Under the pieces are notes generated by a model that was given only the letters and a program-made list of their open reading frames with translations, was not told the DNA's origin and did no database searches. Made by a program: the position numbers and the translations under genes. From the IMG/VR virus record IMGVR_UViG_3300021431_000016, positions 1,906 to 65,905 of that record: 64,000 nt of DNA. One strand, given 5' to 3'. The stretch's first letter is position 1. Every line of letters starts with the position of its first letter. This document shows, in pieces, positions 1 to 54,708 of this stretch. This DNA is from a virus (lineage: Duplodnaviria > Caudoviricetes).

Positions 1-1
1 G

Positions 2-6000: not shown

Positions 6001-7300
6001 ATGGGTAGAAGGTCTGCCTACAGGCGACATGCTCAGCGAGGGAATGACGAATTGGGCTATGAACCTCATGGAAAGCGGCAATCCGTTTGGGGGGAAGAGT
6101 TTCTTTGAGTTTGACCCGGACCTGCTCACGGTGACGAGTGATGCCGTAAAGGTTACTAAATATCTTGAGGGGAAGAACCCGTTAAAGGGTGCGACTGCGT
6201 TTGTAAACCTCTTGGGGCAGATTTATACCGGCGTGAATCCAGAGACATTCACGGACGCAGGAGTAGCAATCTATGATGCTTGCAATGGCGACCCCAAGGT
6301 GGGGAATGAGGCGCTGATGTGTGTACTCCGTATCATGCAGTGCCCACAGTCACAGCTTGACCAGATGTATATCGACGAGCTGAAGATGTCGGCGCGTGAG
6401 GCGCAAAAACTCACTCCCGAAGAAGTTGCTCGCCGCTATGCGTATTACAAGGCGCACAAGGACACTCCTTACATGTGGTGGATGTATAACCAGGACAAGA
6501 AAGATGAGATAGTGAAGAAGTACGAAGGTGACTTCAACAAGAAACTCAACGAGGATGTGAAAAAGGCTGGCGGCACCCCCGAGGACTATCACGACCTGAT
6601 GGAAAGTTCTACCACCAACAAGGAACACGACAAGTACAAGAGCAAGGAGATAGACGCCCTTTCGGAGCAAGGCCCCGAAGCATTGATGAAGGCGTGGGAG
6701 AAGGAACGCAACAAAGGCGCTGCCGCCGACTACAAGTATATGAAGTCGTTGATGACGAGATACCAGAAAGACGTGTACGGCAAGGGCAAGACCCCCGACG
6801 ATGCAGACGAAGCAGAACTCTATCAAGAGACACATGGCGAGGACATTAAAGAACAGGCTCAGAAGATAGGCCGTGACCTGGGTTTCGGTGCCCAGGACTC
6901 CTACTTCCAGCTGTCGCACTACAAGGCACAGCACACGTCGGCGAAAGACCCTGTGATGAAGGAATTCAAGGGCACTGATGCGGAATTCAAATACTCCAAA
7001 GACGGCAAGTTTTACAAGATGGAGGATTATAACTATAAAGTGCCTGTCAAAGACCCAGCGAAGCGCGCGAAAGCCTTGAAGGTCATAAAAGGCCACAAAG
7101 AAGAGCTTCGGCGCAACTATCGAAACGGTTGGCGCATGGCAAAGATTAAGGCCCTGTACAAGGACATCGAAGCCGAGTCGCTGAAGAAAGAGCGCGACTA
7201 TGACAAGATGAAGGCCCATTTCGCTGAGATCATCCAGATTCTTGAAGATGAGCGCAAGGACGCTGCCGAGTGGGAGAAGAAGCACCCAGCCAAGAAATGA
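2..7300 (+). CDS. Giant polyvalent virion/ejection protein, 5'-truncated (zincin metallopeptidase, ADP-ribosyltransferase-like domain, long helical C-terminal region)
   Basis: Frame is open from base 2 (NGGLKAGEDKW precedes the ORF-track Met), so the true start is upstream of the window. HEGVAH(H) zinc motif at about 1907-1927 with downstream EEYLA. ART-like block (FKDWFG..MSHNT..GFNFS..YLDARNP..GFDS..VVFDTTQIKS..NNGDF) at about 2430-3075. Pro-rich linker at about 3170-3260. Confidence 0.8.
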   Translation, partial: NGGLKAGEDKWMGLSQWLEDNKGKSLTKEEVQQFIADNGIEMEETTYSEAPQSFDSLKREYDQWLHDEGFDYAQEQLRGRFGDEADIAFDDLGGELVIANEEAAAALLGSDDIINQTRLDYTTEGLENKREIAFVVPGVEPYQENDAVHFGPENEGRAVMWVRFGETTDKDGNRVLVIDEIQSNRHQDAREKGYKENPFDNQYRLAKERFEQYIKFLDEKYGGKATPEDLNPEERAKVLELSREKGRLNNARIAQNEENWRNKKVPSAPFEKNWHEVAMKRMLRLAAEEGFDKVAWTTGEQQAERYGIGGVVESITKGKTRGENTLVSVQYKNGKHDSWVVATDGKVVDGGITTGENLSDLIGKELSEKVISLDENGSIEGDGLRIGGEGMKGFYDQMLPRFMDKYGKRWGVKTGTVELPNVEEAGRTMHSVDVTPEMKESVMQGQPLFRQKEPMGERGVKKVTVVSEPEYREGTDYFGRPMTHRVRPGQYKVEGYDDIFNSVEEVADFMRKKNPDYCVYIDEDGNIGYETWSNILPEGMKPNTYAKILASNGGKLSSAMRKRIERYTQREMQQARVRAEEITKELGLDVEFHDDPSEFTGRKAKAKGWYDPKTGKIHIVMGNHSGVSDVMATMLHEGVAHHGLRKLFGEDFDTFLDNVHNNVSEDIRTDINDRIEKMRTADEKNNVTRSDDYYRRAATEEYLADLAEDGLYNGEKNTGYASRAWQWIKENFINMLRKAGINIELSDDELRYILWSSHKNLRRGAEAMAEDAVMREKAGIKDYVEDGEPVRTVAENNVRYGDEEAMRKQQESKNFKDWFGDWENDPEHSSKVVDKDGRPLIMSHNTSNEFYTFDRERIGTGQGQAYLGVGFNFSRTGNGVYGNNEMKVYLDARNPLESDGHKLTRRDVESVLRQLDEGQSDTIAAEFAGEYAPYGSAEYNRALRKAVQNLMDNDDLGIVGSISVVAGTARANDIIDAFKKLGFDSTIEKDNDGRIMNAVVFDTTQIKSATDNNGDFSRENPDIRFRDGEEEATPANDLAARLRERMRERMERARAAAGGAEPPVEPPTPPAPATPEPAPELPPTGYDRPMTPIEMAQEAAIKAVADTKANLEQRNTARRELDASLKNLHKAMRLQKEYDRATVENVVTLAKMMVKSGLIDRRYISNLTPLFTKLKDATGKEDLTSTVNGIMDVMLKSQERSIRNELAKLMKVTGTKVDENGVVKQAGLDIRGQHTMQELSEYMNKGSKIIDKRIERLEEMRSRIPEDSTDRLNEIDDKILGCQLAKQYSEIEETHGVNISEAEGDLDFLKERYKSGEMGIKEYTEQKHALENLIRSYRMSQVDALWNQIKAIHWVITDSKEDSRNWIEQQKEHKGEILHDAYSDMQGVPSYTQGDNTKMQEIANSALPKFFSSSLFTLQTMLKSLGNKHALGEGYSYNRFFRGWMENRDAEITEYRDDMKTLNAKARELTGHSYFGIYNMIQKLPKMTVDYYDGGEMRPHDLDQGQLGYAYMVNKMEDGAAALRNMGITEEKMQEIANFLDPNLKRFYDWLQDDFLAGKWDGMNEVHKRLFGADMDRVENYIPLIRDREAGIQKVDISQEGETPLQSTVVGSVIQRVHSNLGVDLKHSNAIDVVANHLLEATHWKHFSEWKRDSNTLLSDTKFRNKVKNSTTIYGSGKILWERLNQVFQIAGGDYKPSAKSSSIDKAIVDMARTVNTAKVSLRVFTATKQLLSLPVFATECNPAILMKNLAFLLSPNKTSGDATQNSFVWCIENLPQFRERWVSRIAGETRLENGDLGWGYSRQKVLEAAARVGLTPNAFIDACTVAAGAKSIYEKRFAQYKKDGFSEEKADHKAKIDAEIAFNESQQSSEKAFVSPIQVDRTAVALGLSTFRNASMGYERKFVDSIKTFRHLTDHKETVEFMKKQLVREGLTETQAKDAAERMYRRALWRSTLNFLMFGFGAQMAWNVGGKLPYLIFGDDDEEKKKIVNEAAVHAGIGGWVEGLPTGDMLSEGMTNWAMNLMESGNPFGGKSFFEFDPDLLTVTSDAVKVTKYLEGKNPLKGATAFVNLLGQIYTGVNPETFTDAGVAIYDACNGDPKVGNEALMCVLRIMQCPQSQLDQMYIDELKMSAREAQKLTPEEVARRYAYYKAHKDTPYMWWMYNQDKKDEIVKKYEGDFNKKLNEDVKKAGGTPEDYHDLMESSTTNKEHDKYKSKEIDALSEQGPEALMKAWEKERNKGAAADYKYMKSLMTRYQKDVYGKGKTPDDADEAELYQETHGEDIKEQAQKIGRDLGFGAQDSYFQLSHYKAQHTSAKDPVMKEFKGTDAEFKYSKDGKFYKMEDYNYKVPVKDPAKRAKALKVIKGHKEELRRNYRNGWRMAKIKALYKDIEAESLKKERDYDKMKAHFAEIIQILEDERKDAAEWEKKHPAKK

Positions 7301-7328
7301 CATATTGATTCAACTGGCGCATAGATGC

Positions 7329-7368
7329 GAGAGGGACTGTCCGTCACGGATGGCCCCTCTCTTTCTTT
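7329..7368. terminator. Hairpin between convergent genes, probable bidirectional terminator
   Basis: GAGAGGGACTGTCCG-tca-CGGATGGCCCCTCTC followed by TTTCTTT. Confidence 0.6.
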
Positions 7369-7402
7369 ACAAACTAAAATCAAATGCTTATGAGTAAAAG
7401 AA

Positions 7403-9619
7403 TCAGAATGTAGCCTCGTTCGGCCTGTACTTTTGTGTGAATCGGCTGCTTGACTTGAACTCGTCACCTGTTATTCCTCGTGGCAGAGGCATCGTCTGCG
7501 AGATGTAGAGACCTATGGCGCGTGCCATCAGGCGGTCGTCGTGGTATCCCTCTGCCGCTTCGAGAGTGCCCTTCTCGTTGCGCTGGTACACACGGTACTC
7601 CATAAGAGCCTCTTCCTCGCGCTCGGTGTAGAGCCGGTCGTCAATCATCGTTATCAGGTTGTCGATGATAAGCGCCTTGGTATGGACATTCGTCTGGAAT
7701 CCCCACATCTTGCGGCGTGTCTTCTTTATCTTGTCGGGCGTAGACTGTCGGGCGTACATGTTCTTGTAGGTGCGTCCTATCTGCTCAAGGATAAAGGCGC
7801 TGTGGTCGCCTTCGGTGTCCATATCCTTCGTCTCATAGGTGTTGGACTCCACGACAAGCAGCGCATTGTTGTAGAAGGCGGCAATCTGCGCCATCTTCCA
7901 TGCTAGCCTGTCGTGTCGGCAATGGCCGTGCCACTCTGCGACCACCACGTCGCCCTCTCCCTCGGTGCGCCACCACCTGTCAAGGACAAGGATAACGGAG
8001 TAGTCGGCACGTTCGCTCCTGCCGCCGACGTCGGTAGCGACTATGTATCGGTTGCTCGCCCGGAACGAGGTGTCGGGCATCTCCCATATTCTGAGGTTCC
8101 CCGACTTGTCGTCAACGAAGCGCAGTTTCTTCAGTGCGTTCTTGCCACTCGGTTCCTGCCCTGCCACCTCGCCGACCCATTTAGCCGGCATGCAGGATTG
8201 GCGCAGAAGCTCCACCTTGTCACGGTCGAAGACGTTCTGTCCGCTGTGAGCGAATGCCTCGTCATCATCGGAAGGGTACTCCGAAGCCATCGCGTCGTGA
8301 GAACGGTAGGTGCGCCGTTTCTCTATGTACCAATGGATAGCCTCGAGCGAGGCGCCTTTCTTCCACAGTCCGTAGAGATAGATTCCACACTCCTCACGCA
8401 CCGATTTGTAGGTAGACTGCTCACGGTTCACAAAGAGGTCGTAGGCGAACTCCTCGCGCTTCTCATCGTTCTCGAACGGCATGGAGTATAGTTCAATCTC
8501 GTACCATGGGACAAATACCGGGACACGCTTGCTACGTCCGTTCTTCGCGTCGAGCCATTCATGGTGGAACAGGTTATTCTCGCCTTTCGCCGTAGACTCC
8601 ATTACGTCCATAGTGAGAGGCACCTCAAGGATAGAAGAAGACACTGCCTGTATCACGTCCTCGGGCGTCTTGCCCTCGGTCTGCCGCCACAGGCCCACCT
8701 CGGAGAAATGTGCCAGGGCGATGTCGGCACCACGTACCGACTCAGGCGACTGCATGGAGCCGATTGAGATGACAGTGTCTCTCGCCTGCTGCTTGTTCTG
8801 CGTGATGGTTACCTCGGTGCGGGAGCCGCCGTAAGGGGTGAGCTGCAAGGCCGGGGAAGGCTCCCTTCCGAGCAGGGACGGTGGGTATTTCTTCAGCATG
8901 CGTGAATACATGGAGCGGATATTCATCGCGCTTGAGGACTGATGCGCCACGATGGCGCTGTTGAGACCTTCGCGGTGTACAAGCTGAATCCACGCCATAT
9001 ACATCTGCACAAGTGTAGAGCCGCCCCACTGTCGCGCTTTAAGGATAATCATTCGTATAGGCTTCTCGTTAAGGCGCATGTCCTCAAGTTTCTCAAGCGT
9101 CTTGCGCTGAGGCCTGTTGAGCACGAACTTCATGTCGGCGCCGAGGTTGGCGGTGCTTGCGTCCTGTTTGCGCTTGATAGTCACGAACGATGCCGCCCAG
9201 AAGCAGAAATCCTCCTTGATGCGCACCTCTATCAGTTGGCGCATGACGCGCTGTCGGTTCTCGCTGTTGTCCTCAATCTTGTTCTTCTTGAGGAACTTCT
9301 TTATCGAGCCACACTCCTCAAGAACCTTTATCAGTTTCACGTCACGGAGTTTCATGGGCAGATACCACTCGAGTTCCTTTATCTTGAACATGAAACGCTC
9401 AAGCGGCGCTCCATGTCCCGATATGGGGTCGAACGGCTCCTTGAGTACGGCGAGACGCCTCTCGTTCTCCTCAAGCATCTCTTCCACGCATTTCTTCCTT
9501 TTCTGCTTGATGAGATGCCCCATGGACTTCGACGCAGATTCTCGTTTCCTCACTTCAACGTCCTCGCGCCCCTTGGCGACAATCTCCAGCCATTGTTCTC
9601 TTGTCGGGTGTTTTCTCAT
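7403..9619 (-). CDS. terL: Terminase large subunit
   Basis: LKARQWGGST Walker A-like motif, ESTAKG coupling motif, C-terminal RNase H-like nuclease (ATDVGG, VVESN, HDDRLMA). Confidence 0.9.
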   Translation of the reverse strand: MRKHPTREQWLEIVAKGREDVEVRKRESASKSMGHLIKQKRKKCVEEMLEENERRLAVLKEPFDPISGHGAPLERFMFKIKELEWYLPMKLRDVKLIKVLEECGSIKKFLKKNKIEDNSENRQRVMRQLIEVRIKEDFCFWAASFVTIKRKQDASTANLGADMKFVLNRPQRKTLEKLEDMRLNEKPIRMIILKARQWGGSTLVQMYMAWIQLVHREGLNSAIVAHQSSSAMNIRSMYSRMLKKYPPSLLGREPSPALQLTPYGGSRTEVTITQNKQQARDTVISIGSMQSPESVRGADIALAHFSEVGLWRQTEGKTPEDVIQAVSSSILEVPLTMDVMESTAKGENNLFHHEWLDAKNGRSKRVPVFVPWYEIELYSMPFENDEKREEFAYDLFVNREQSTYKSVREECGIYLYGLWKKGASLEAIHWYIEKRRTYRSHDAMASEYPSDDDEAFAHSGQNVFDRDKVELLRQSCMPAKWVGEVAGQEPSGKNALKKLRFVDDKSGNLRIWEMPDTSFRASNRYIVATDVGGRSERADYSVILVLDRWWRTEGEGDVVVAEWHGHCRHDRLAWKMAQIAAFYNNALLVVESNTYETKDMDTEGDHSAFILEQIGRTYKNMYARQSTPDKIKKTRRKMWGFQTNVHTKALIIDNLITMIDDRLYTEREEEALMEYRVYQRNEKGTLEAAEGYHDDRLMARAIGLYISQTMPLPRGITGDEFKSSSRFTQKYRPNEATF

Positions 9620-9996
9620 CTCCTCTTTCTCTTCTTAATGGTCCTGTAGATGATGTCACGCGCCGCCGAGAGCGAGAGGAAGAAAGACGGCGCAGGGCCT
9701 TCCACCACGTCACGCACCCTGCTGTTGGAGAAATCTCCGTCGCAGAGTTCTATTATGGTGTCAATCTTCCTTATCTGCATAGTGTGCTCGTTCCCCTTGT
9801 CGCCCCACTCGCCATTGAGCCGCGCCTTGATAAAGCGCATGGCGTTCTGTGGCGTTATCCAGAAGCGTGAACACGGCGATGAGGCCGCGGAAGATATAAC
9901 ATCTCTCGCGAGCCGTCCTCCACCCAGCATAGCCAGGAAGACAGACGTCAGTTCCTCATTCCGTTGCGCGGCGAGTTCGCCGACAGATTCATCCAT
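9616..9996 (-). CDS. Hypothetical protein upstream of terL (start re-set to MDESVGE)
   Basis: Overlaps the terL start by 4 nt, basic C-terminus, minus-strand TATTTTTG promoter at 10023-10030. Confidence 0.6.
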   Translation of the reverse strand: MDESVGELAAQRNEELTSVFLAMLGGGRLARDVISSAASSPCSRFWITPQNAMRFIKARLNGEWGDKGNEHTMQIRKIDTIIELCDGDFSNSRVRDVVEGPAPSFFLSLSAARDIIYRTIKKRKRR

Positions 9997-10039
9997 AAAT
10001 TTAATCCCGCAAAATATTTTCGCAAAAATACATAATAAA

Positions 10040-10083
10040 TTCGTTGGTTGCAAGGATTTCGGGGATAAAAATCTATAAATTTG
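10040..10083 (+). promoter_or_regulatory. Late promoter, copy 1 (TTCGTTGGTTGCA-N23-TAAATTTG)
   Basis: 13-bp motif at 10040-10052, Bacteroidetes -7 element at 10076-10083; identical layout at three other loci. Confidence 0.8.
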
Positions 10084-10122
10084 CACAGAATAGAAAAAAA
10101 TTTGTACATAGAATAGATTTGT

Positions 10123-10917
10123 ATGGCAACAGAAGAAAAAGACAACAAGCCTTTAGAGGCCACTGAGGAGCAGCAGACTCCCGTCACGAGCAGCCGCCAG
10201 GCGTTCGTGGACCGCATAAAGACCCGCCATCCGGAGCTCGACGACAGCGATGAGGAAGGGTTCTATAGCGCCGTCAACGCCGACTACGATGAGGACGATG
10301 AAGGGCGTGAGGAACTAAAGCGCTACAAGGAAGACGATGAGCGCCTGCGTGACATTTTCCAGAATGACCCACGCATGGCTAACATCTTCTTGGGTATGGC
10401 ACGTGGAGAGAACGTCTTGGAGTATCTCATTGACAACTTCGGTCAGGACTTCCTTGACGCCATTAACAATCCCGAGAACGAGGAAGCGCGCCAGCGCATC
10501 GCCGAGAAACAGAAGCAGTGGGTAGAGAAGCAGGCCGCCTCACGCGACCTCGAGCGCCAGGCCAGCGAGAACCTCGACAAGGCATTAGACGCGTTTGACG
10601 CAGTGGCCGAGGAGACTGGAGCCACCGATGAGGACAAGGAAGATGCCTTCAAGAAGTTCACCGAGTTCCAGCAGCGCGCCATCGTCAATGATATTGATGA
10701 GGACATGTGGAGGCTGTTCTTTAACGGAGTGACCCATGATGCAGATGTAGAGCAGGCAGGCATTGAGGGTGAAGTGCGTGGACGCAACGCGAAGATACGC
10801 GAGCGCCTGCGTGGCGAGAGCGAGAAGAACCCAATGGATATGGGTGGCGCGACAACGCGCAATGAGGCCCCCCGCCGTGCCAGCAGCATCTTTGACCTCG
10901 CGGCAGAAGCGAAATAA
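10123..10917 (+). CDS. Probable capsid scaffolding protein
   Basis: Very acidic, helical/coiled-coil, directly upstream of the putative capsid gene. Confidence 0.6.
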   Translation: MATEEKDNKPLEATEEQQTPVTSSRQAFVDRIKTRHPELDDSDEEGFYSAVNADYDEDDEGREELKRYKEDDERLRDIFQNDPRMANIFLGMARGENVLEYLIDNFGQDFLDAINNPENEEARQRIAEKQKQWVEKQAASRDLERQASENLDKALDAFDAVAEETGATDEDKEDAFKKFTEFQQRAIVNDIDEDMWRLFFNGVTHDADVEQAGIEGEVRGRNAKIRERLRGESEKNPMDMGGATTRNEAPRRASSIFDLAAEAK

Positions 10918-10949
10918 ACTGATTATAAACTTTAAATTTGTGAATAGAA

Positions 10950-12536
10950 ATGGCAGTGACAAACATTAAAGAGAGCGGCGCTGATGTAGCAAAAGTTGCA
11001 GGCGTCGACACTCAAGTACAAGGAGACCTCGATACCTCTAAGGGTTCAGCAGGTCTTGATTCTCAGGTTCCCGGCCAGCCAGCGACCGTCAGCGGTCTGG
11101 CAAGTGCCACAGGCGGAATTGGCTCAGGCAATTTCGTACAGCCCGACCTCGATGAGGAGCTTTTTAAGTTTCAATCGGACGACACCCCTCTGATGCAGTT
11201 GATGCTCAAGGCAAAGAAGGTGAAGGTTAAGTCGCCCGAGGTGAAGCACTACATGATTGACGAGCCCGCGTACTACGTTACCACTTCGACTGCTTTCACC
11301 GCAGCCGCAACCGTACAGGGCGTTCTTCCATTGGTGACCAACGACCAGCAGATTCCACGCCCCTTCACCACTCTTTTGGTTAACGGCGTAGACGGTTACG
11401 ATGAGAGCGGCACCCAGACCCCTGGCAAGCCCCTCATGCTTTTCGTTGTAGACCATGACGCAAGCACCGGCAACCCCATTGTGCGTGCCATCAACGGCAC
11501 CAAGGCTAACGCCAGCGACGAGTTCTGCGGCATTCCTGCTATCCCAGCAGGCACCAAGTGCACCATCCTCGGCAACGCCCTGTATGAGACCCAGAAGGAG
11601 GTTGATCCCGACCTCATCGTTCCCCAACCAAGTCTGATTTACCTTCAGAAGCGTGGTATGAACCAAGTGGTAAGCGACTACTTCGATGCTCAGAAGAAGG
11701 AGATTCCTTTCACCAAGAGCGTTATCGCAGAGGCCGCCATCGCCAACTTCAAGACCCGCGGCAACCGTACCCTTTGGGCAAGCCGTCAAGGCAAATTCAA
11801 ACTCAACGTTCCCAAGATGGGATTGCAGTATGTATATTCTACCGAGGGCGTGCGTTGGCAGTTCAAGCGCGAGTTGCAGCATAGCGGCGCATGGACCGTG
11901 GAGAAGCTCATCGCACTCGCCAAGATGTTCTTCACAGGCGAGGATGTGCCCAAGACAGGTATCGTATTGGCAGGTAAGAACTTCCTCGAGGGTATCCAGT
12001 GCATCGACTACTCGAAGCACCCAGAGATTCAAATCTCTACCGCTATCAACCCTGTAGGTTGGGAGGTGACCCGAATCCATACCGTTTTCGGCAACTTCGA
12101 CATCAAGCGCGAGCCCACCCTTGACCGCCTTGGCTGGAGCAATTCGGCTGGCATCTTCGGTGAGGACCGCCTCGTTCACTACACCTACTCGGCAGAACAT
12201 TCGTTCAACGACCGAGTGGACGGCGAGGAAGCCACCCGCACCGGCATCCTTATTTGGGATGCTTTGGCACTCAAGGGCTCTTGCCACATCTGGGTAGACG
12301 GTGAGGAAGGCAATGAGAGCGGCAACACAGGCGCCGTCACCTTCGAGTTCTGGGACAACAGCAAAGACCCCAGCGACGCAGGCGATGTAACTGATGGCGT
12401 AGCATACTACTTCCTTGAGAACACCGTGCTTGACAGCACCAACGATGTCACCGCAGAGGCAGGCAGCATTTGGGTTGCTTCCGTAAGTGGCAGCACCGTG
12501 ACATGGAAAGAGTACAACGGTCTGCTCAACGCGTAA
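10950..12536 (+). CDS. Probable major capsid protein
   Basis: 528 aa after the scaffold, low-complexity N-terminal arm, motifs typical of HK97-fold capsids (NQVVSDY..QK, EGVRWQ, IHTVFGNF), strong codon bias. Confidence 0.7.
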   Translation: MAVTNIKESGADVAKVAGVDTQVQGDLDTSKGSAGLDSQVPGQPATVSGLASATGGIGSGNFVQPDLDEELFKFQSDDTPLMQLMLKAKKVKVKSPEVKHYMIDEPAYYVTTSTAFTAAATVQGVLPLVTNDQQIPRPFTTLLVNGVDGYDESGTQTPGKPLMLFVVDHDASTGNPIVRAINGTKANASDEFCGIPAIPAGTKCTILGNALYETQKEVDPDLIVPQPSLIYLQKRGMNQVVSDYFDAQKKEIPFTKSVIAEAAIANFKTRGNRTLWASRQGKFKLNVPKMGLQYVYSTEGVRWQFKRELQHSGAWTVEKLIALAKMFFTGEDVPKTGIVLAGKNFLEGIQCIDYSKHPEIQISTAINPVGWEVTRIHTVFGNFDIKREPTLDRLGWSNSAGIFGEDRLVHYTYSAEHSFNDRVDGEEATRTGILIWDALALKGSCHIWVDGEEGNESGNTGAVTFEFWDNSKDPSDAGDVTDGVAYYFLENTVLDSTNDVTAEAGSIWVASVSGSTVTWKEYNGLLNA

Positions 12537-14190: not shown

Positions 14191-15878
14191 GCAGAACAAG
14201 AGTAAATTACAAATCAGACTTGCCGCCTGTAGCGGTTAAGTTTAAAATAAACGGCAGTGTGGTTGATGTCCCTAGCCATGATTTCGTTATCCGCTTCTTT
14301 GTGGACGGTGCGCCAGGCACAAGTTTTGAGTGCGCCCATAAGGGGGATGAGTATATCAACTGCGCCAAGACTGCTGACGACACCTTAACGTGCTACATCA
14401 ACAATCATAAGTTTGGGTGTGGGCGTTTGTGTTGTGAGTTCATAGACCTTTCGGCAGACAGCAGATACGAAGACAAGGTTCTTAAAACCGTCACTCCCTC
14501 TGCTCTTGATGTCGTTCTTGTGGAAGGGGCAGGCGACTCCAACGTTGAGGTGCTTAATATCATTTTCGGTTATGAGATTAACGAGATTGCAGAAATAACA
14601 GCAGTAGAAAGCTCGGAGGATGGCGGCAACAATGTAATCACTATCACACAGACTAACGGCGAAGAGTTTTCTTTCAACGTAAAAAACGGCACAAAGGGTT
14701 CAACAGGCGAAATGGGGCCAGAAGGACCTCAAGGACCAACAGGGCCTCAAGGACTAACAGGGCCTCAAGGACCAAAAGGCGACAGCGGTGTCCACCTCGG
14801 CGATGTGGTTCTCGTCAACAACCTCTCAGAAGGTGGAGAGGAGTCAGCCCTAAGTGCCGAAATGGGCATTGCCATTCGTGACATTATTGAACAAATCTTC
14901 AATGCTCTGGGAGAATATTCCTTTCCAAACGGCAAACCAACCATTGATTGGACAGGTGGTTTTGTCTCAATAAATCTTAACCTTTCCGACTTTACAAGCA
15001 GCAATATGAGCGACACGACCAAAAGGGGAGACGCATACACAACAACATTAACCCCCGCTCATAGCAGCAACCTTTATGTTAATGAGGTTGTCATTATGAT
15101 GGGAGATGAGGATATAACCGCCACCGCATACAATGAAAGCACTGGAGTTGTGAGTATCGCAGAAGTGACTGGCGCAATAGAGATAACCGCATCGCAGGAA
15201 ACTTATGTGCAGGATGGGCTTGTGCTGCATCTTGACGGAAAGAATAGAGGTGGCACGGCTGGGCATTGGGTTTCACTTGTTGACTACAATGGGGCACCAA
15301 TAGACTTCACCCTCACAGATTGCGATGAGACGCATGATGACTATGTAGCATTCAATGGGACAACCTCGAAAGGTGTTGGCAGTGTAAGTCTGCTTGATGT
15401 GTCAGCGGAAAGCGGGACAATTGAGGCAGCATATAACGGAGGTGAGTTGAACTCCAATCAGTTTGGCATTATGTACAACGCACTTGGCTCTAATAAGCGA
15501 ATATGTCTTGCATCGTGGAATCAAAATAGTGATGCAAACAACAACCTAATTGTGATATGTGCAGCATCTTCTAACACCTCATACGTTCCTTCAGACATAG
15601 GCGCAAAGTTTTCTAAGGCATCTATCACAAGTGGTGGTGTTATAAGTTGTTCTAAAGGCAACTTTAAAATAAACCAACAAAGTCAACTGTCCTATGCTGA
15701 CGCCTACCAAACAACTGACAGTGAATCTATGTTGTCATTGTTTTGGCGAAAACTATCATCAAGCGAAAGATTCTTCAAAGGCAACCTGCAATCATTGAGG
15801 GTATACAATCGCATCTTAACTAATGCAGAGAGAGCGCAAAATTATCGTGTTGATTCTATACGATTTAATCTTACATAA
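14187..15878 (+). CDS. Tail fibre / receptor-binding protein with collagen repeat, Ig-like and LamG-like domains
   Basis: About 11 G-X-Y triplets at about 14690-14790; VNNLSEGGEESALSAEMG hinge; C-terminal YVQDGLVLHLDG...LRVYNRILT motif of LamG/ConA domains. Confidence 0.75.
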   Translation: MSRTRVNYKSDLPPVAVKFKINGSVVDVPSHDFVIRFFVDGAPGTSFECAHKGDEYINCAKTADDTLTCYINNHKFGCGRLCCEFIDLSADSRYEDKVLKTVTPSALDVVLVEGAGDSNVEVLNIIFGYEINEIAEITAVESSEDGGNNVITITQTNGEEFSFNVKNGTKGSTGEMGPEGPQGPTGPQGLTGPQGPKGDSGVHLGDVVLVNNLSEGGEESALSAEMGIAIRDIIEQIFNALGEYSFPNGKPTIDWTGGFVSINLNLSDFTSSNMSDTTKRGDAYTTTLTPAHSSNLYVNEVVIMMGDEDITATAYNESTGVVSIAEVTGAIEITASQETYVQDGLVLHLDGKNRGGTAGHWVSLVDYNGAPIDFTLTDCDETHDDYVAFNGTTSKGVGSVSLLDVSAESGTIEAAYNGGELNSNQFGIMYNALGSNKRICLASWNQNSDANNNLIVICAASSNTSYVPSDIGAKFSKASITSGGVISCSKGNFKINQQSQLSYADAYQTTDSESMLSLFWRKLSSSERFFKGNLQSLRVYNRILTNAERAQNYRVDSIRFNLT

Positions 15879-15880
15879 TT

Positions 15881-16867
15881 ATGTCAATCCAAACACTGTA
15901 CAAAACCGACAAGGGCAATGATTTTATTGCTAAATTGAATACAAATTTTGCCGATATAGGCAATCTTGCTTTTAGTGACAATGATTGCAGAGCAAGATTC
16001 ATTCAAGAGATGAACAAAAAAGCGCAATTATTGGGGATGTTTAACACGACATTCTATGACCCTGCTGGAAATCAACCAGCAACATTGTATTTACCGAACT
16101 ACCAACAGCAATATCCGCAAATGTTTTTGAGTGAGAATGCCAACACCATGTCGGCAATTGATGCGCTTAAAATGTTGCTATTTGCAAGTGGGATTAGGCA
16201 AATCAATAGTGCGTGGTCATTGGCTACATACACACTTAACTATACCAATGGAGAAACTGAAAAAACTGCAACAATTACATCCTCTGTTATGGGCAAAAGT
16301 GATGCACTTGCAACAAGTTATCAAATATTGGGAGGCAAGACTGGTTCAATGCTTTTTGCCCCTCTTAATGCAAAAACACTTGTTGTGGTTGCTCGTTCAA
16401 TTGCAACGGGTAAAATATTCATCTGTGCTGATTTCAGCACTTCTACTACAGCTATAAGGGACAATGTTAAAAGCATACTTGATGCCGCAGATAACAATAC
16501 TGCTGCGCCACAATATTCACAAGGTGCTTATTGTGTCGGTGAATTGCCAGCCATCACACCATCGTTATATTGCAGAACTGACATCCCTCTTATATATACA
16601 TTCAATAGCGAAAATGTTTCTTATCCTGCGTCTGTCACCAAGATAATGACTGCAATCTTGCTATGTGAAAGCAACCTTGACCTTGAGAAAAAAATCGCTG
16701 TCAAAGAGAGTGACCGACAGCCACCGACTGGCACAAACTTTGTCGCTGGTGACACTTTGCGCTTGCGTGAATACTTGCAATGTATGCTAATGGAGAGCAG
16801 CAACACAAGCGCACAAGTAATTGCGAGGTATGTGGGAAATATCCTGCTTAACAGAGATAACTTTTAA
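15881..16867 (+). CDS. Circularly permuted serine DD-carboxypeptidase / penicillin-binding-protein-fold protein (peptidase S11-like)
   Basis: Contains PASVTK (SxxK), SSN (SxN), GGKTG and FIQEMNKKAQLLGMFNTTF, but in the order MN..KTG..SxxK..SxN. Confidence 0.8.
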   Translation: MSIQTLYKTDKGNDFIAKLNTNFADIGNLAFSDNDCRARFIQEMNKKAQLLGMFNTTFYDPAGNQPATLYLPNYQQQYPQMFLSENANTMSAIDALKMLLFASGIRQINSAWSLATYTLNYTNGETEKTATITSSVMGKSDALATSYQILGGKTGSMLFAPLNAKTLVVVARSIATGKIFICADFSTSTTAIRDNVKSILDAADNNTAAPQYSQGAYCVGELPAITPSLYCRTDIPLIYTFNSENVSYPASVTKIMTAILLCESNLDLEKKIAVKESDRQPPTGTNFVAGDTLRLREYLQCMLMESSNTSAQVIARYVGNILLNRDNF

Positions 16868-16950
16868 ATTGCCCAGGGAGTGACTTGCGGATAGAATACA
16901 TGAGCGACAACATAAGAACTATGGAAAGATTAACGAGATAGAGGCGCAGT

Positions 16951-16978
16951 AAAAAAAGAGGCGACCTCTGTCGCCTCT
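16951..16978 (-). terminator. Intrinsic terminator
   Basis: AGAGGCGAC-ctct-GTCGCCTCT with an A7 tract on the left, i.e. a U-tract on the minus strand. Confidence 0.7.
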
Positions 16979-17122
16979 ACCCACAATGGGGATTTAAAAG
17001 TCCCCTACTAAAATAAATCTTAATTACCACAAAAAGATTCTCCCAGATGGAAGCGTAGGGGACGTAATATCCTTAACCTTCCAAGTGGGAGATTATTGTA
17101 TAATCGCATATCTTTTTGTGGT
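16951..17122 (-). ncRNA. Candidate structured ncRNA with long hairpin and potential pseudoknot
   Basis: Minus-strand TACCTTTG promoter (17126-17133), 14-bp and 6+7-bp nested inverted repeats, 9-nt loop complementarity, intrinsic terminator at 16951-16978. Confidence 0.6.
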
Positions 17123-17146
17123 ATGCAAAGGTAATAATAAAATACT

Positions 17147-17380
17147 ATGCTTGCAATAGATTTGGTAAGATTTTGTGGTGAGATGCTGAAACGTCTTTCA
17201 GATTGTGACATATTGCTCGACGATTACAAACGAGTGGGAATGTGTGACGAGTACTGCAAACTGATTGACGAGGGACATAAAAAGGAATATGCCATTGCTG
17301 TGGTGACTGAGAAGTATAAGGTTAGTGAAAGCACTTTGAGACGAGCGTTGAAGCGGTTGTGCCGACCTGTCACGACGTGA
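17147..17380 (+). CDS. Small protein with C-terminal HTH-like segment
   Basis: KKEYAIAVVTEKYKVSESTLRRALKRL resembles an HTH recognition pattern. Confidence 0.55.
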   Translation: MLAIDLVRFCGEMLKRLSDCDILLDDYKRVGMCDEYCKLIDEGHKKEYAIAVVTEKYKVSESTLRRALKRLCRPVTT

Positions 17381-17425
17381 AAGATTAATAAGAAGGAAAT
17401 AATTGCGAAGTCATTTTGGAGTGGC

Positions 17426-17433
17426 TAACTTTG
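17426..17433 (+). promoter_or_regulatory. Host-type -7 promoter element for the 17503-20352 cassette
   Basis: TAACTTTG, without the late 13-bp motif upstream. Confidence 0.6.
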
Positions 17434-17502
17434 CGGTACCTTAAATCGCGATAAAAGGAATAACGAAAACAATCTTTATTAACTCTTAAATCTACTACAA
17501 CA

Positions 17503-18417
17503 ATGGCAGATACAAAAGTATTTAGCTTCCCAGACAACGGGAACAACGGCGGTCTCTTCGGCGGCAATGGTGGCTGGGGCGGCGGCATACTCGGTTTCCT
17601 GCTGGGCTTGATGTTCGGCAACGGTGGCTGGGGCGGTTTCGGCGGCTTTGGCGGCGGCAACAATGGTGCAGGATTCCTCGCCAACCAGATGAACAACGAC
17701 AACGGCCGTGACCTCTTGATGCAGGCAATCACATCACAAGGCGAGCAGAGCCGCCAGGCAATCTCGACCTTGAGCACCATGCTCGGCCAAGACTTCAACT
17801 TGGTTAACTCAAGCATTCAGACCATCGGCACAGCGGTCAACAACATCGCCAACCAGCAAGGCATGAACGCATTGCAGGTTATCAACGCAATCCAGAGCGG
17901 CAACGCATCGCTCTCGAGCCAGTTGTGCCAGTGCTGCTGCAACATGCAGGCTACCGTGAACAACGGCTTCGGTGATGTGCAAAGAGCTATTGCCGACAAG
18001 GCGGCAGCAGATCAGCTCGGCACATGCCAGCAGACCTATGCTCTCACCGACACGATGAACCGCAACAACCAGAGCATCCTCGACAAGCTCGCCTCGATGG
18101 AGACAAGAGCCCTCCAGGATAAGCTCGAAGCGGCCCGTGAGAAGAACACCCAACTCAGCGGTGAGATTTCGCAGCTCAACCAGAACCAGTACATCGCCGG
18201 TGTGGTAGGTCAGTCAATGGCTCCCCTCAATGCGCAGCTCGCCGCCTTGAACAAGGAGGTTGACGACATCAAGTGCAAGCTGCCCAACACCGTGAACGTT
18301 GAATACCCCAACCTTGTGGCCGTGAACGCCACCCCCTACGTCAATGGAGGCTTCTATGGCAACAGTGGCTACAACTACTACGGCGGCAACGGCTTCGGCG
18401 GTGGTATCGTGTTTTGA
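17503..18417 (+). CDS. Gly-rich membrane-anchored coiled-coil protein of unknown function
   Basis: Gly/Asn-rich N-terminus with hydrophobic ILGFLLGLMF, Gln/Asn coiled coil, LCQCCC motif, aromatic/Gly tail. Confidence 0.8.
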   Translation: MADTKVFSFPDNGNNGGLFGGNGGWGGGILGFLLGLMFGNGGWGGFGGFGGGNNGAGFLANQMNNDNGRDLLMQAITSQGEQSRQAISTLSTMLGQDFNLVNSSIQTIGTAVNNIANQQGMNALQVINAIQSGNASLSSQLCQCCCNMQATVNNGFGDVQRAIADKAAADQLGTCQQTYALTDTMNRNNQSILDKLASMETRALQDKLEAAREKNTQLSGEISQLNQNQYIAGVVGQSMAPLNAQLAALNKEVDDIKCKLPNTVNVEYPNLVAVNATPYVNGGFYGNSGYNYYGGNGFGGGIVF

Positions 18418-18442
18418 TTAAAGCATAGAAGGAGGATAGGAT

Positions 18443-18778
18443 ATGGCATGCTTTAACAACATCACCACCAACGCTGGCGGTATTCCCTACCTCAGCGTGG
18501 GCAACGTTACCGTAGGCACCGATGCAGTTGACCTGGCACTCGGTTTCCGCCGCATCGCTCCAGTGGGCTATATGACAATCCGTCTTGCCACTGCGATTCC
18601 CGCGGACACCACTACCACATTGCCAGTGACATTGACCCTCAACGGCACAACGAGGAATCTGACATTGTATGACGGCACCCAGGCCACCGTGGCCGACCTT
18701 ATCGGCGGTGGTGTGTTCACCGTCTTCAACGACCGCTTCAACGGTGTGCTGCAAGTGGTGTCACTAACAGCAGCGTAA
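18443..18778 (+). CDS. Hypothetical beta-rich protein
   Basis: Clean ORF in the cassette, Thr/Val-rich alternating pattern. Confidence 0.7.
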   Translation: MACFNNITTNAGGIPYLSVGNVTVGTDAVDLALGFRRIAPVGYMTIRLATAIPADTTTTLPVTLTLNGTTRNLTLYDGTQATVADLIGGGVFTVFNDRFNGVLQVVSLTAA

Positions 18779-54585: not shown

Positions 54586-54708
54586 AGTTCGTTTGCAGAA
54601 TTTTTCGTGTTGCCCCCACGTTTAAAAGTTATTGCTACCCTCGCCCTGTGTGTAGGGCGAGACGCTCACGGCTTAAAGCCTGTTTTACATCGCCGTGACG
54701 ATGAAGGG

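Follow-up and report, generated by a model that had tools for sequence, protein, structure and literature searches.

A structured non-coding RNA gene with a probable loop-to-tail terminator helix in temperate phages and prophages of rumen and gut Bacteroidales

The window analyzed here is a stretch of 64,000 nucleotides from a virus of the Caudoviricetes (IMG/VR record IMGVR_UViG_3300021431_000016, positions 1,906 to 65,905). On the minus strand, 16951-17133 encodes a folded non-coding RNA about 130-175 bases long, and the plus strand holds, at 17147-17380, a divergently oriented gene for a 77-residue, four-helix HTH protein of Mor-like character (phrog_17790, E = 1.7e-13). The RNA gene lies at the border between a late/structural operon, which converges on it, and an accessory operon, which is headed by the HTH gene. 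The element is present as a single copy per genome, with no second copy in this phage, and a tRNA/tmRNA scan returned no such gene.

Read in the direction of transcription, the locus opens with an exact -7 promoter box of the Bacteroidota type (TAnnTTTG; TACCTTTG, 17133-17126, minus strand), and the spacing to this box suggests that the transcript probably starts at about 17119-17125. The 5' arm of the outer helix P1 (UACCACAAAAAGAU, 17110-17123) forms a 14-nt perfect inverted repeat with the 3' arm (17025-17038). It is followed by J1/2 (17093-17109), an A-rich asymmetric internal loop on the 5' strand that is unpaired in the minimum free energy (MFE) fold, carries a semi-conserved ACAAnAA motif in the consensus of the final family alignment (A9, described below), and may act as a hinge. 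The inner helix P2 (17078-17092 paired with 17039-17053; 7 + 6 bp with a 2-nt bulge), also part of the MFE fold, closes an apical loop region (17054-17077) that includes a G-rich segment, g1 (17069-17072), and a C-rich segment, c1 (GUCCCCUAC, 17055-17063). Beyond P1, an A/U-rich linker that is un- or weakly paired in the fold (17009-17024) leads to the tail segment g2 (GUAGGGGAC, 17000-17008), which is complementary to c1 at nine of nine positions (duplex dG -16.0 kcal/mol) and is directly followed by a first U-run (UUUU, 16996-16999). A C-run downstream of g2, termed c2 (UCCCC, 16988-16992), forms an alternative hairpin with g2 (GGGGA/UCCCC) in the MFE fold. Finally, a terminator scan places a canonical intrinsic terminator at 16950-16978 (9-bp GC-rich stem within 16978-16957, loop of 4, U7). 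The promoter box, both stems, the loop complement, the competing hairpin, and the terminator (at 16951-16978) had all been proposed in an earlier, sequence-only reading of this DNA, and each of them was recovered here.

At the canonical terminator, a GC-rich helix precedes a U-tract on the transcribed strand, and the U-tract lies 3' of the stem on the minus strand only. The first U-run is the predicted first termination point and would yield a probable first end, with an RNA of ~127-130 nt; the canonical terminator, also present in the related loci L004, L056, and L005, is proposed as a back-up 3' end that would yield an RNA of ~172 nt. The minus-strand RNA, with an MFE of -69.7 kcal/mol, lies far below a set of 200 dinucleotide shuffles (-39.2 +/- 4.1 kcal/mol; z = -7.5). 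Because an equally good fold is open to the plus strand, the strand was assigned from the promoter, the U-tracts, and the excess of G-U pairs among homologues. One metatranscriptome from the phage's own sample has contigs on 16278-16948 and 17457-17882 and none on 16949-17456, and two other RNA runs have contigs over parts of the cassette only; these data consist of contigs alone and are thus uninformative, in either direction, on expression, ends, and strand.

MAFFT alignments of the divergent members were structurally inconsistent and were replaced by iterative covariance models (R1 to R3), of the kind the earlier reading had called for, with which homologues were gathered. The final alignment (A9) comprises 38 distinct sequences, taken from phages in IMG/VR and from prophages found in MAGs of Prevotellaceae/Bacteroidales. 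Models R1 to R3 located the RNA, once per locus and in the syntenic position, in about 28 of the 57 related IMG/VR loci, and further matches were found in prophages of Prevotellaceae/Bacteroidales MAGs; a blastn search of 16000-18500 against a phage GenBank collection gave no match. Its carriers are thus temperate phages, and prophages, whose hosts are Bacteroidales of the rumen and gut (Prevotellaceae and their relatives).

Base pairing is strongly conserved across this set. Compensatory (double) changes occur in all 27 modelled pairs of A9, those of P1 included, and the pairs of P2 are 94-97% paired, every one of them covarying; a lack of covariation, named earlier as a result that would speak against an RNA, is the reverse of what the alignment holds. 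Overall, 93.0% of pair cells are paired, against 36-42% with the partners slid, and the covariation score of 0.995 (vs. 0.11-0.16) was reached by none of 500 shuffles. Loop nucleotides (G-G, UA, and CCC) are conserved in the A9 consensus. The other result named in advance, a conserved 29-codon ORF (17020-17109) in place of conserved pairing, was not obtained either: the pairing is kept, and the ORF is found in only two of the 38 members, the window and the 97%-identical L004, being absent at that position in the other 36, whose longest ORF, on either strand and anywhere, has 1-39 codons. The claim of a stand-alone non-coding RNA with a long hairpin and with its own promoter and terminator is therefore backed by the 38 homologues.

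The Rfam search that had been proposed gave no family match. A gathering-threshold scan of the whole window found nothing relevant, a cmscan of 16700-17500 against Rfam 15 at E <= 10 returned two chance-level matches only (ncr1241, 17.8 bits; FopS, 17.2 bits), and a scan of 16 other members at E <= 1, toxin-antitoxin and abiF models included, gave no relevant match. The gene is confirmed as real and is apparently uncatalogued, a word that here refers to Rfam and not to the list of some 8,500 unnamed candidate RNAs from IMG/VR (PMC10690425).

Equal folding of the two strands is also what a DNA-level element would display—that is, a recombination hotspot, a set of HTH operators, or a boundary cruciform of which the RNA is a by-product. 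The junction is mosaic, with flanks and core of different histories and a variant core in the same sample, and TTTTGTGGT occurs twice, at 17114-17122 and 17171-17179, on either side of the promoter, both of which are in keeping with such an element. Nevertheless, we attach little credence to it, since the signals are strand specific: 37 of 38 members have an exact TAnnTTTG at a distance of 0-7 nt upstream of the model start (other strand, 1 of 38), and a 3' U-run of at least four residues is likewise present in 37 (other-strand control, 1 of 38). In addition, G-U pairs outnumber A-C pairs by 46 to 17 across the homologues, a loop-tail complement beside a U-run has no obvious meaning in DNA, and the copy of the repeat within the HTH gene was not seen in L016, the sole other member checked, by eye.

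The most distinctive property of the family is the complementarity between the C-rich apical loop and the G-rich tail segment, which was detected in 38 of 38 members, is 7-16 nt long, and has a dG of -12 to -26 kcal/mol. Column-wise counting of pseudoknot pairs was replaced by per-sequence tests against shuffled and non-cognate tails, because the covariance model put loop and tail out of register; relative to shuffled tails, the helix is significant at p <= 0.01 in 35 of the 38 members. Both of its sides change between lineages (GUCCCCUAC/GUAGGGGAC, CCCCACAGCUAU/GUAGUUGUGGGG, and GGUCUCUCGGU/ACCGGGAGACC). The sequence-only reading had described this element as a pseudoknot or a switch, and the comparative data back a loop-to-tail pairing in either form. 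A U-run begins 0-3 nt after the helix in 34 of the 38 members; among the four members without a U-run within 3 nt, L016 has no U-run, and in L011 and L097 the longest contiguous loop-tail helix ends a few nucleotides before it.

A GC-rich helix placed directly before a U-run is probably an intrinsic terminator stem, and the loop-tail pairing would then be a pseudoknot that doubles as a terminator. The resemblance to Rho-independent terminators lies in this GC-rich helix directly before the U-tract; unlike in ordinary terminators, the 5' half of the helix sits in the apical loop of a ~28-bp stem, ~55 nt upstream, and with its two halves not contiguous the structure would be an atypical form of terminator. 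A hairpin loop that pairs with a 3' tail is also seen in the H-type/HLout pseudoknots of the preQ1-I, SAM-II, and fluoride riboswitches, from which the phage RNA differs in that no downstream gene is regulated in most loci and no riboswitch model matches. The linker between P1 and the tail is ~11-19 nt family-wide (by our own reading of the A9 rows) and would have to bridge the distance between the foot of P1 and the apical loop, so that an intramolecular pseudoknot would require a sharp bend at the internal loop; for this reason, loop and tail may instead pair between two molecules, or their pairing may be one of several alternative folds.

One rival account is a ligand- or factor-responsive switch, a riboswitch-like small RNA in which a metabolite, a protein, or an RNA sets the ratio of short to long transcripts: c1:g1 pairing would permit read-through followed by the g2:c2 hairpin, and c1:g2 pairing would cause termination at the first U-run. 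The segments g1, c1, g2, and c2 are mutually complementary and laid out as in attenuators, conserved nucleotides concentrate in the loops and the junction and not in the helices, and a second terminator lies 3' in the window, L004, L056, and L016. However, the g1:c1 helix comprises only 3-4 bp, compared to 7-16 bp for c1:g2. Of 32 members tested, 31 could form a helix of 5 bp or more between g2 and downstream sequence, but this pairing beats shuffles in only three of them, so that its significance is not established. A gene downstream on the RNA strand that could be regulated, the mark of a riboswitch or leader, is absent in most loci: the downstream neighbor on that strand converges in about 25 of 28 loci and in most of the host-genome loci listed, with L010, L029, and L062 as the exceptions. 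Together with the lack of an Rfam riboswitch match, these observations make the switch a distinctly unlikely account.

The short linker also bears on the idea of a self-assembling or protein-scaffolding RNA, in which loop-tail pairing would join molecules head to tail into dimers, rings, or chains, or in which the fold would sequester a host or phage protein. The loop-tail complement reaches 16 nt, and, with ~28 bp of stem to be crossed, the linker is short for an H-type pseudoknot within a single molecule. The retention of a fold while the sequence diverges widely recalls the pRNA of the phi29 family, which the phage RNA (~120-170 nt in this comparison) also resembles in size and in its covarying, single-stranded complementary segments. 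In pRNA, however, the pairing is loop-loop and intermolecular, whereas here it is loop-tail; moreover, pRNA genes are found at the genome end of protein-primed Bacillota phages, and the present family has no tie to packaging genes or genome ends and no Rfam match, although Rfam includes a phi29 pRNA model. A U-run directly after the helix favors a co-transcriptional, intramolecular role, and we consider self-assembly or scaffolding very improbable.

The RNA had been described as an orphan, a label that the homologues contradict. A divergent ORF (within a search range of 60-110 residues), the gene for a Mor-like HTH protein of 75-85 residues (phrog_17790), is present in 35 of the 38 members; the genes that follow it differ among loci. 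Mor (PF08765) matches 19 of 28 partner proteins at E <= 0.1, with a best value of 1.1e-4, all of them below the Pfam gathering threshold, and a comparison of the partner profile with PDB 1rr7 (Mor) gave only E = 1.5. The AF2 model of the partner (pLDDT 94.4) has four helices with the HTH at the end, a generic fold, and its best Foldseek matches are generic HTH domains (E >= 0.4). A match of the partner profile to designer PPR proteins was rejected as an artefact, being the sum of nine insignificant repeat matches. PADLOC returned nothing significant for the cassette proteins and window neighbors.

The association of RNA and HTH gene is not rigid. In L056 the HTH gene is 92% identical and the RNA core 62-75%, in L004 the RNA is 98-100% and the HTH gene 62% identical, and in some phages (L005 and L034) the HTH gene is kept without the RNA, L005 having neither the RNA core nor its promoter. 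The two are thus exchanged independently, and the HTH gene sometimes stands alone, which indicates that the partnership is neither sequence-specific nor obligatory. Predicted pairing between the RNA and the HTH mRNA showed no cognate preference (cognate and non-cognate duplexes alike at -35.8 kcal/mol), in a test that is weak because long interior loops inflate the duplex energies. A search for trans targets within the phage found chance-level matches of 11-14 nt only, none of them convincing. Hairpin loops with GGGGCAA before early genes were also considered as targets of the C-rich loop and were set aside, since by eye they offer only 4 bp, in this phage.

From what is observed, namely the gene and how it folds, the complementary loop and tail, a promoter and a U-tract, and a partner gene, we favor, at slightly better than even confidence, a stand-alone structured RNA gene of a phage and prophage family, with a loop-tail terminator and a regulatory role at the operon border. 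Host RNA polymerase would initiate at the consensus TAnnTTTG promoter, and the transcript would fold into a long hairpin made of P1, the A-rich internal loop on the 5' side, and P2. The emerging G-rich tail segment could then pair with the C-rich stretch that the apical loop exposes, and this helix, placed before the U-run, would act as terminator stem and leave a compact RNA of ~130 nt held by a pseudoknot. The canonical terminator 35 nt downstream would, in this phage, serve as a back-up and release an RNA of ~172 nt.

As for function, our best guess is that the RNA is a regulator at the boundary of the late operon and the HTH operon. No exact plus-strand TAnnTTTG lies between 15844 and 17157, upstream of the HTH gene, so that plus-strand transcripts reaching this gene would have to cross the RNA gene; the RNA would be perfectly antisense to such transcripts, and competition between the divergent promoters, which overlap, may play a part as well. 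A -7-like box seems to stand immediately ahead of the HTH start codon in many family members, and where it is present, read-through transcripts are not required. The closest parallels for such a border RNA are the cis-antisense and immunity RNAs, i.e., IS10 RNA-OUT, lambda OOP, P22 sar, P1/P7 c4, and the P4 CI RNA, which are stable, structured RNAs expressed from constitutive promoters. The phage RNA shares with them its character as a short structured RNA with its own promoter and terminator, its position at a regulatory border beside or opposite a regulator gene, and a sequence free to vary as long as structure is kept. It differs from them in being larger (130-175 nt), in showing no overlap with a mapped target transcript, in lacking any similarity of sequence or model (Rfam), and in that its exposed loop is matched by its own segment beside the U-tract, an arrangement not known from any of those RNAs.

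A different function, suggested by the sequence-only reading, was that of a decoy antitoxin RNA or antitoxin mimic, of the pseudoknotted kind (type III ToxI-like or AbiF-associated), which would neutralize a host abortive-infection toxin. The RNA is phage-encoded, pseudoknotted, and equipped with a host-type promoter that would allow early expression, and it resembles the type III antitoxin RNAs (ToxI, CptI, and TenpI) in being small, able to form a pseudoknot, and tied to phage-host conflict. Those antitoxins, however, are tandem repeats of ~34-36 nt directly upstream of a toxin gene on the same strand, neither of which applies here: no internal direct repeats occur in 16850-17250, where the sole direct repeat is a 10-nt pair 241 nt apart, and no toxin gene stands beside the RNA in the window or in the annotated homologue loci, as the earlier reading had itself remarked for this phage. 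A proposed link to host Abi/HEPN genes fared no better. Among 151 host genomes sampled, all homologues lie in phage context beside an HTH gene, with no Abi, HEPN, or toxin gene among their annotated neighbors. Hypervariable helices would also be unexpected in a mimic of a fixed host antitoxin. In the absence of an Rfam match, tandem repeats, a toxin gene, a reverse transcriptase (RT), or UG27 motifs, the decoy reading is unsupported, and we give it almost no weight. A related candidate, a CRISPR-repeat mimic acting as an RNA anti-CRISPR, was rejected: the helices are hypervariable, and no Rfam CRISPR-DR model matches.

The UG27 motifs just mentioned belong to RT-associated RNAs that are superficially close to the present family. 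UG27 ncRNA units of Bacteroidota phages measure ~135-167 nt, form a hairpin with an asymmetric internal loop and a pseudoknot, and occur as arrays beside an RT and two accessory genes, with AUCN7UANAG and UUYA bracketing the central hairpin (bioRxiv 10.64898/2026.09.22.753630). The phage RNA shares with these units its size, an interrupted main hairpin with an asymmetric internal loop, a pseudoknot, a conserved structure with high sequence diversity, and Bacteroidota phage hosts, and in five prophages it adjoins an RT gene, so that a template or scaffold RNA for an RT, or a part of a diversity-generating retroelement (DGR), was considered. Against this, the RNA is single-copy and not arrayed, has its own promoter and terminator, and resides in a complete 65.9-kb phage genome in which a PF00078 search of the full record found no RT. 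None of the 17 distinct members tested contains AUCN7UANAG, and two of them lack UUYA, which in the others is present at scattered positions only. In L098, the RT beside the RNA lies on the opposite strand and is part of an ordinary DGR, whose own TR/VR pair is elsewhere, and the genome of the present phage holds no second, A-mismatched copy (VR) of the element. An RT template or DGR part is, accordingly, hardly to be expected.

A bolder form of the preferred border-regulator reading, which we put forward tentatively and regard as unlikely, is that the family represents a new class of phage RNA: a long-range pseudoknot would make up the intrinsic terminator, the knot would itself be a specific effector, and RNA and Mor-like regulator would form a previously unknown RNA-protein switch. 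If so, the apical loop of a bent 28-bp hairpin would pair with the nascent 3' tail, and whether the RNA terminates would depend on its being correctly folded as a whole; once complete, the knot would bind a host or phage factor or assemble head to tail, and RNA and regulator would together govern the border between late and accessory (DNA-modification or conversion) operons in Bacteroidales phages. Confirmation of a pseudoknot as terminator stem would widen the accepted forms of intrinsic termination and improve the prediction of terminators and small RNAs in Bacteroidota. In the viromes of rumen and gut, phages of Prevotella and other Bacteroidales predominate, and to our knowledge almost nothing is known of their gene regulation; the pairing of this RNA with a Mor-like gene may flag operon boundaries and regulatory switches in uncultured phage genomes. 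With unusually clean covariation, a defined promoter and end, a fixed partner gene, and no matching Rfam model, the family lends itself readily to an Rfam entry and to experimental work. It is also common, the RNA being present in 15 of the 151 sampled genomes of the host family (Prevotellaceae/Bacteroidales), or about one in ten.

The window covers nearly all of an IMG/VR phage record of 65.9 kb, which is complete and bounded by direct terminal repeats, and the RNA element lies in a 279-nt gap separating two plus-strand genes. The upstream gene, the last of the capsid/tail block, encodes a 328-aa protein, part of which is peptidase S11-like; the downstream gene (17147-17380) encodes a 77-aa helix-turn-helix (HTH) protein of phrog_17790 (E = 1.7e-13), beyond which lie a gene for a 304-aa coiled-coil protein (phrog_16490), further genes, and then lysis genes and an integrase. 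On the minus strand, the element opens with an exact -7 box of the Bacteroidota type (TACCTTTG, 17133-17126), followed by the outer stem P1, found by repeat search as a 14-nt perfect inverted repeat (17123-17110 with 17038-17025). A 17-nt A-rich stretch, unpaired on the 5' side only, separates P1 from the inner stem P2, which has 7 + 6 bp in the minimum free energy (MFE) fold and is capped by an apical loop with the C-rich segment GUCCCCUAC (17063-17055). The 3' arm of P1 is joined by a 16-nt A/U linker to the tail segment GUAGGGGAC (17008-17000), identified in the repeat search as the perfect complement of the loop segment and followed by UUUU. A C-run 3' of the UUUU is able to pair with the tail G-run, and a terminator scan placed a canonical terminator at 16978-16950 (9-bp stem, then U7). 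The promoter, long hairpin, loop/tail complement, competing C-run pairing, and terminator noted in the sequence-only reading were thus all confirmed on the minus strand between 17133 and 16950.

The RNA has an MFE of -69.7 kcal/mol, compared with -39.2 +/- 4.1 for shuffled sequences (z = -7.5); the plus strand of the locus folds equally well, and the strand is therefore not identifiable from folding alone. The reading as a minus-strand RNA is well supported by sequence features, because the promoter box, U-run, and excess of G-U pairs are strand-specific. Among 38 distinct homologues, an exact TAnnTTTG box was found 0-7 nt ahead of the model start in 37 (the opposite-strand control had the box in 1/38), a 3'-end U-run of at least four was present in 37, and the modelled pairs included 46 G-U against 17 A-C, an A-C pair corresponding to G-U on the opposite strand. 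An element acting at the DNA level is the alternative to be weighed here, with the equal folding of both strands on one side and these strand-specific signals on the other, and we regard it as very improbable. A small protein gene was also considered and rejected, since the 29-codon ORF at this site is limited to the window and a near-identical relative (2/38 members), with nothing comparable there in the other 36; it is the pairing that is conserved, and not the ORF.

With the 304-aa neighbour protein as the query, 57 related IMG/VR loci were collected, about 20 of which showed by eye the same order upstream of a small gene (TAnnTTTG, long hairpin, C-rich loop, complement, and U-run), with widely differing hairpin sequence. 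Because MAFFT gave no usable alignment of the divergent members, covariance models were built iteratively, from a seed of the window and a 97% relative (R1) through R2 to R3. The last of these detected one syntenic copy, in opposite orientation to the neighbour gene, in about 28 of the 57 loci and a single copy in the window phage's own genome. Rumen MAGs of Prevotellaceae/Bacteroidales carried further copies within prophages, and among 151 genomes sampled in the host family 15 were positive, a few with two copies. No family in Rfam 15 matched the window or 16 other members, and the family may stand undescribed among the unnamed IMG/VR candidate RNAs of PMC10690425. We view it as a phage-encoded structured small RNA with a conserved partner gene of Mor-like type and a putative terminator that is unusual in being of the pseudoknot kind.

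The covariance model built from homologues bore out the proposed base pairing, with compensatory, both-sided changes at all 27 modelled pairs in the 38-member alignment. Standard pairs made up 93.0% of cells, compared to 36-42% for partners shifted by 1-3 columns, the covariation score was 0.995 versus 0.11-0.16, and none of 500 shuffles equalled the observed values; this alignment was fitted to the covariance model, yet single-sequence folding recovers the helices independently. A 17-sequence alignment gave a similar picture. The conserved nucleotides sit in the junction and loops, not in the helices: ACAAnAA ahead of P2, an apical-loop pattern G-G...UA...CCC, and a tail G-GGGG with U's after it.

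A contiguous complement between the apical loop and the tail was found in 38/38 members (7-16 nt, median 10.5), with duplex energies of -12 to -26 kcal/mol, and outscored shuffled tails in 35 of them (p <= 0.01); the mean loop-tail score was 27.4 for cognate tails versus 19.2 for tails of other members. The helix has a C4-5/G4-5 core, but its flanks, and even the core, differ between lineages with both sides changed, as in the loop/tail pairs of the window (GUCCCCUAC/GUAGGGGAC) and of the compared loci L056 (CGUCCCCUGCG/CGCAGGGGACG), L019 (ACUCCCGACUC/GAGUCGGGAGU), L066 (CCCCACAGCUAU/GUAGUUGUGGGG), and L064 (GGUCUCUCGGU/ACCGGGAGACC). A U-run follows the helix within 0-3 nt in 34/38 members, and in most of the family this is the sole terminator-like feature on the RNA strand; we therefore read the loop-tail helix as an intrinsic-terminator stem, the 5' half of which would be supplied by the apical loop, that is, as a pseudoknot. 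An additional canonical terminator lies downstream in the window, L004, L056, and L016, the last of which has no U-run after the helix. Of the pseudoknot or switch proposed from the sequence alone, the complementarity holds throughout, and the knot itself is our interpretation. The linker measures only 11-19 nt against about 28 bp spanned by P1 and P2, so an intramolecular knot needs a sharp bend at the conserved, one-sided A-rich internal loop; without it, the helix would form between molecules or belong to an alternative fold. An RNA that self-assembles or binds a protein, a reading favoured by this geometry and disfavoured by the adjacent U-run, seems to us improbable. A factor-responsive switch, in favour of which stand the conserved nucleotides in loops and junction, is somewhat less so but still unlikely: the C-run beyond the U-run, as a third segment, is frequent across members and statistically not established.

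The RNA is accompanied by an opposite-strand ORF of 60-110 aa, starting no more than 90 nt from the RNA 5' end, in 35/38 members. These ORFs align as a single family of 75-82 residues, phrog_17790. An AlphaFold model (pLDDT 94.4) has four helices, the last ones forming a helix-turn-helix, and resembled only generic HTH DNA-binding domains in Foldseek (E >= 0.4); sub-threshold Pfam matches to Mor, the middle/late activator family of phage Mu, were obtained for 19 of 28 members. The genes 3' of the HTH gene vary: the window group has the 304-aa cassette, several prophages have genes for a D12 adenine methyltransferase and a thymidylate-synthase-like enzyme, and a glycosyltransferase gene is found elsewhere. 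In prophages at the host-genome loci L082-L097, detected by the RNA model alone, the place of the 304-aa cassette of the window is taken by DNA-modification-type genes (D12 N6-adenine methyltransferase, thymidylate-synthase-family enzyme, and GT2 glycosyltransferase), a layout that recalls phage Mu, in which the C activator controls the mom DNA-modification gene. On its other side, the RNA gene faces structural, lysis, or DGR modules, whose ends converge on it. The conserved unit is therefore the divergent pair of RNA gene and small HTH gene at an operon border.

Sequence comparisons indicate that the two genes are exchanged independently. Relative to the window, L056 is 88-96% identical in the promoter, HTH gene, and terminator and only 62-75% in the RNA interior, whereas L004 is 98-100% identical in the RNA and 62% in the HTH gene; in L005 and L034 the HTH gene is present and the RNA is missing. 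The related phage L005 carries a natural deletion variant (3560-3650), in which the HTH homologue and the same canonical terminator are kept and the RNA promoter and core are gone. In the source sample, a DNA contig joins 16982 to 17116 with other sequence between, and many contigs break around 16900-17620, which indicates co-occurring strains differing in the RNA core and HTH gene. Contigs of the only metatranscriptome with the window phage cover both flanks and leave a gap at 16949-17456, a result neutral on expression.

With modest confidence, we propose that this is a constitutive, self-terminating regulatory RNA insulating or gating the Mor-like gene and its operon. An exact plus-strand -7 box is absent from 15844-17157 of the window, and late-operon transcripts may therefore be what reaches the HTH gene; such transcripts would run through the RNA gene, with full complementarity to its product. 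The distance from the RNA -7 box to the HTH start codon is 13 nt in the window, ~15 nt in the prophages from the genome search, and up to about 35 nt in other phage loci, a gap so short that the two divergent promoters must overlap. Gating could thus proceed through antisense pairing with read-through transcripts, promoter competition, or both. No trans target sites were identified within the phage, a weak test found no cognate preference of the RNA for HTH mRNA, and no defence-system similarity was seen among the proteins of the window neighbours. A direct repeat, TTTTGTGGT, occurs on the plus strand at 17114-17122, within a P1 arm, and at 17171-17179, within early HTH-gene codons; the copies bracket the divergent promoter region, either as a possible pair of operators or by chance, and the repeat was not seen by eye in L016, the only other member inspected.

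The earlier suggestion of a decoy type III or AbiF antitoxin was abandoned, as there are no tandem repeats, no Rfam model match, and no toxin neighbours in the annotated loci. The description of an ncRNA associated with UG27 reverse transcriptases (RTs) is superficially close to the window RNA (bioRxiv 10.64898/2026.09.22.753630). A template RNA of this type was rejected: no RT is encoded anywhere in the complete phage, only one copy of the RNA is present, and the AUCN7UANAG motif that defines UG27 units is absent from all 17 members examined. An RT adjoins the RNA in five prophages, read as belonging to an ordinary DGR that has a TR/VR pair of its own, which was located in L098. Within 1-11456 of this Bacteroidales MAG prophage (G041:C19:214700-228700), a complete DGR lies directly beside the RNA module, with a 2351-aa target ORF (44-7099), VR (6917-7031), TR (7358-7472, 90% identical to VR), RT (7670-8983), and a DUF4376 ORF (8980-9465). 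The RNA comes next, and then the genes for the Mor-like HTH protein, a D12 adenine methyltransferase, and a ThyA-like protein. A giant ORF resembling the target ORF is also present in the window phage (2-7300), which has no RT. Elsewhere in the window, a match to the Bacteroidetes sRNA FopS on the minus strand of the spacer between the HTH and 304-aa genes (17451-17498; 17.2 bits, gathering score 56, E = 6.6) is probably due to chance, and the leftward early region contains, on the minus strand at 54633-54703, a full-length match to the Pistol self-cleaving ribozyme (RF02679; 68.1 bits, gathering score 34.5).
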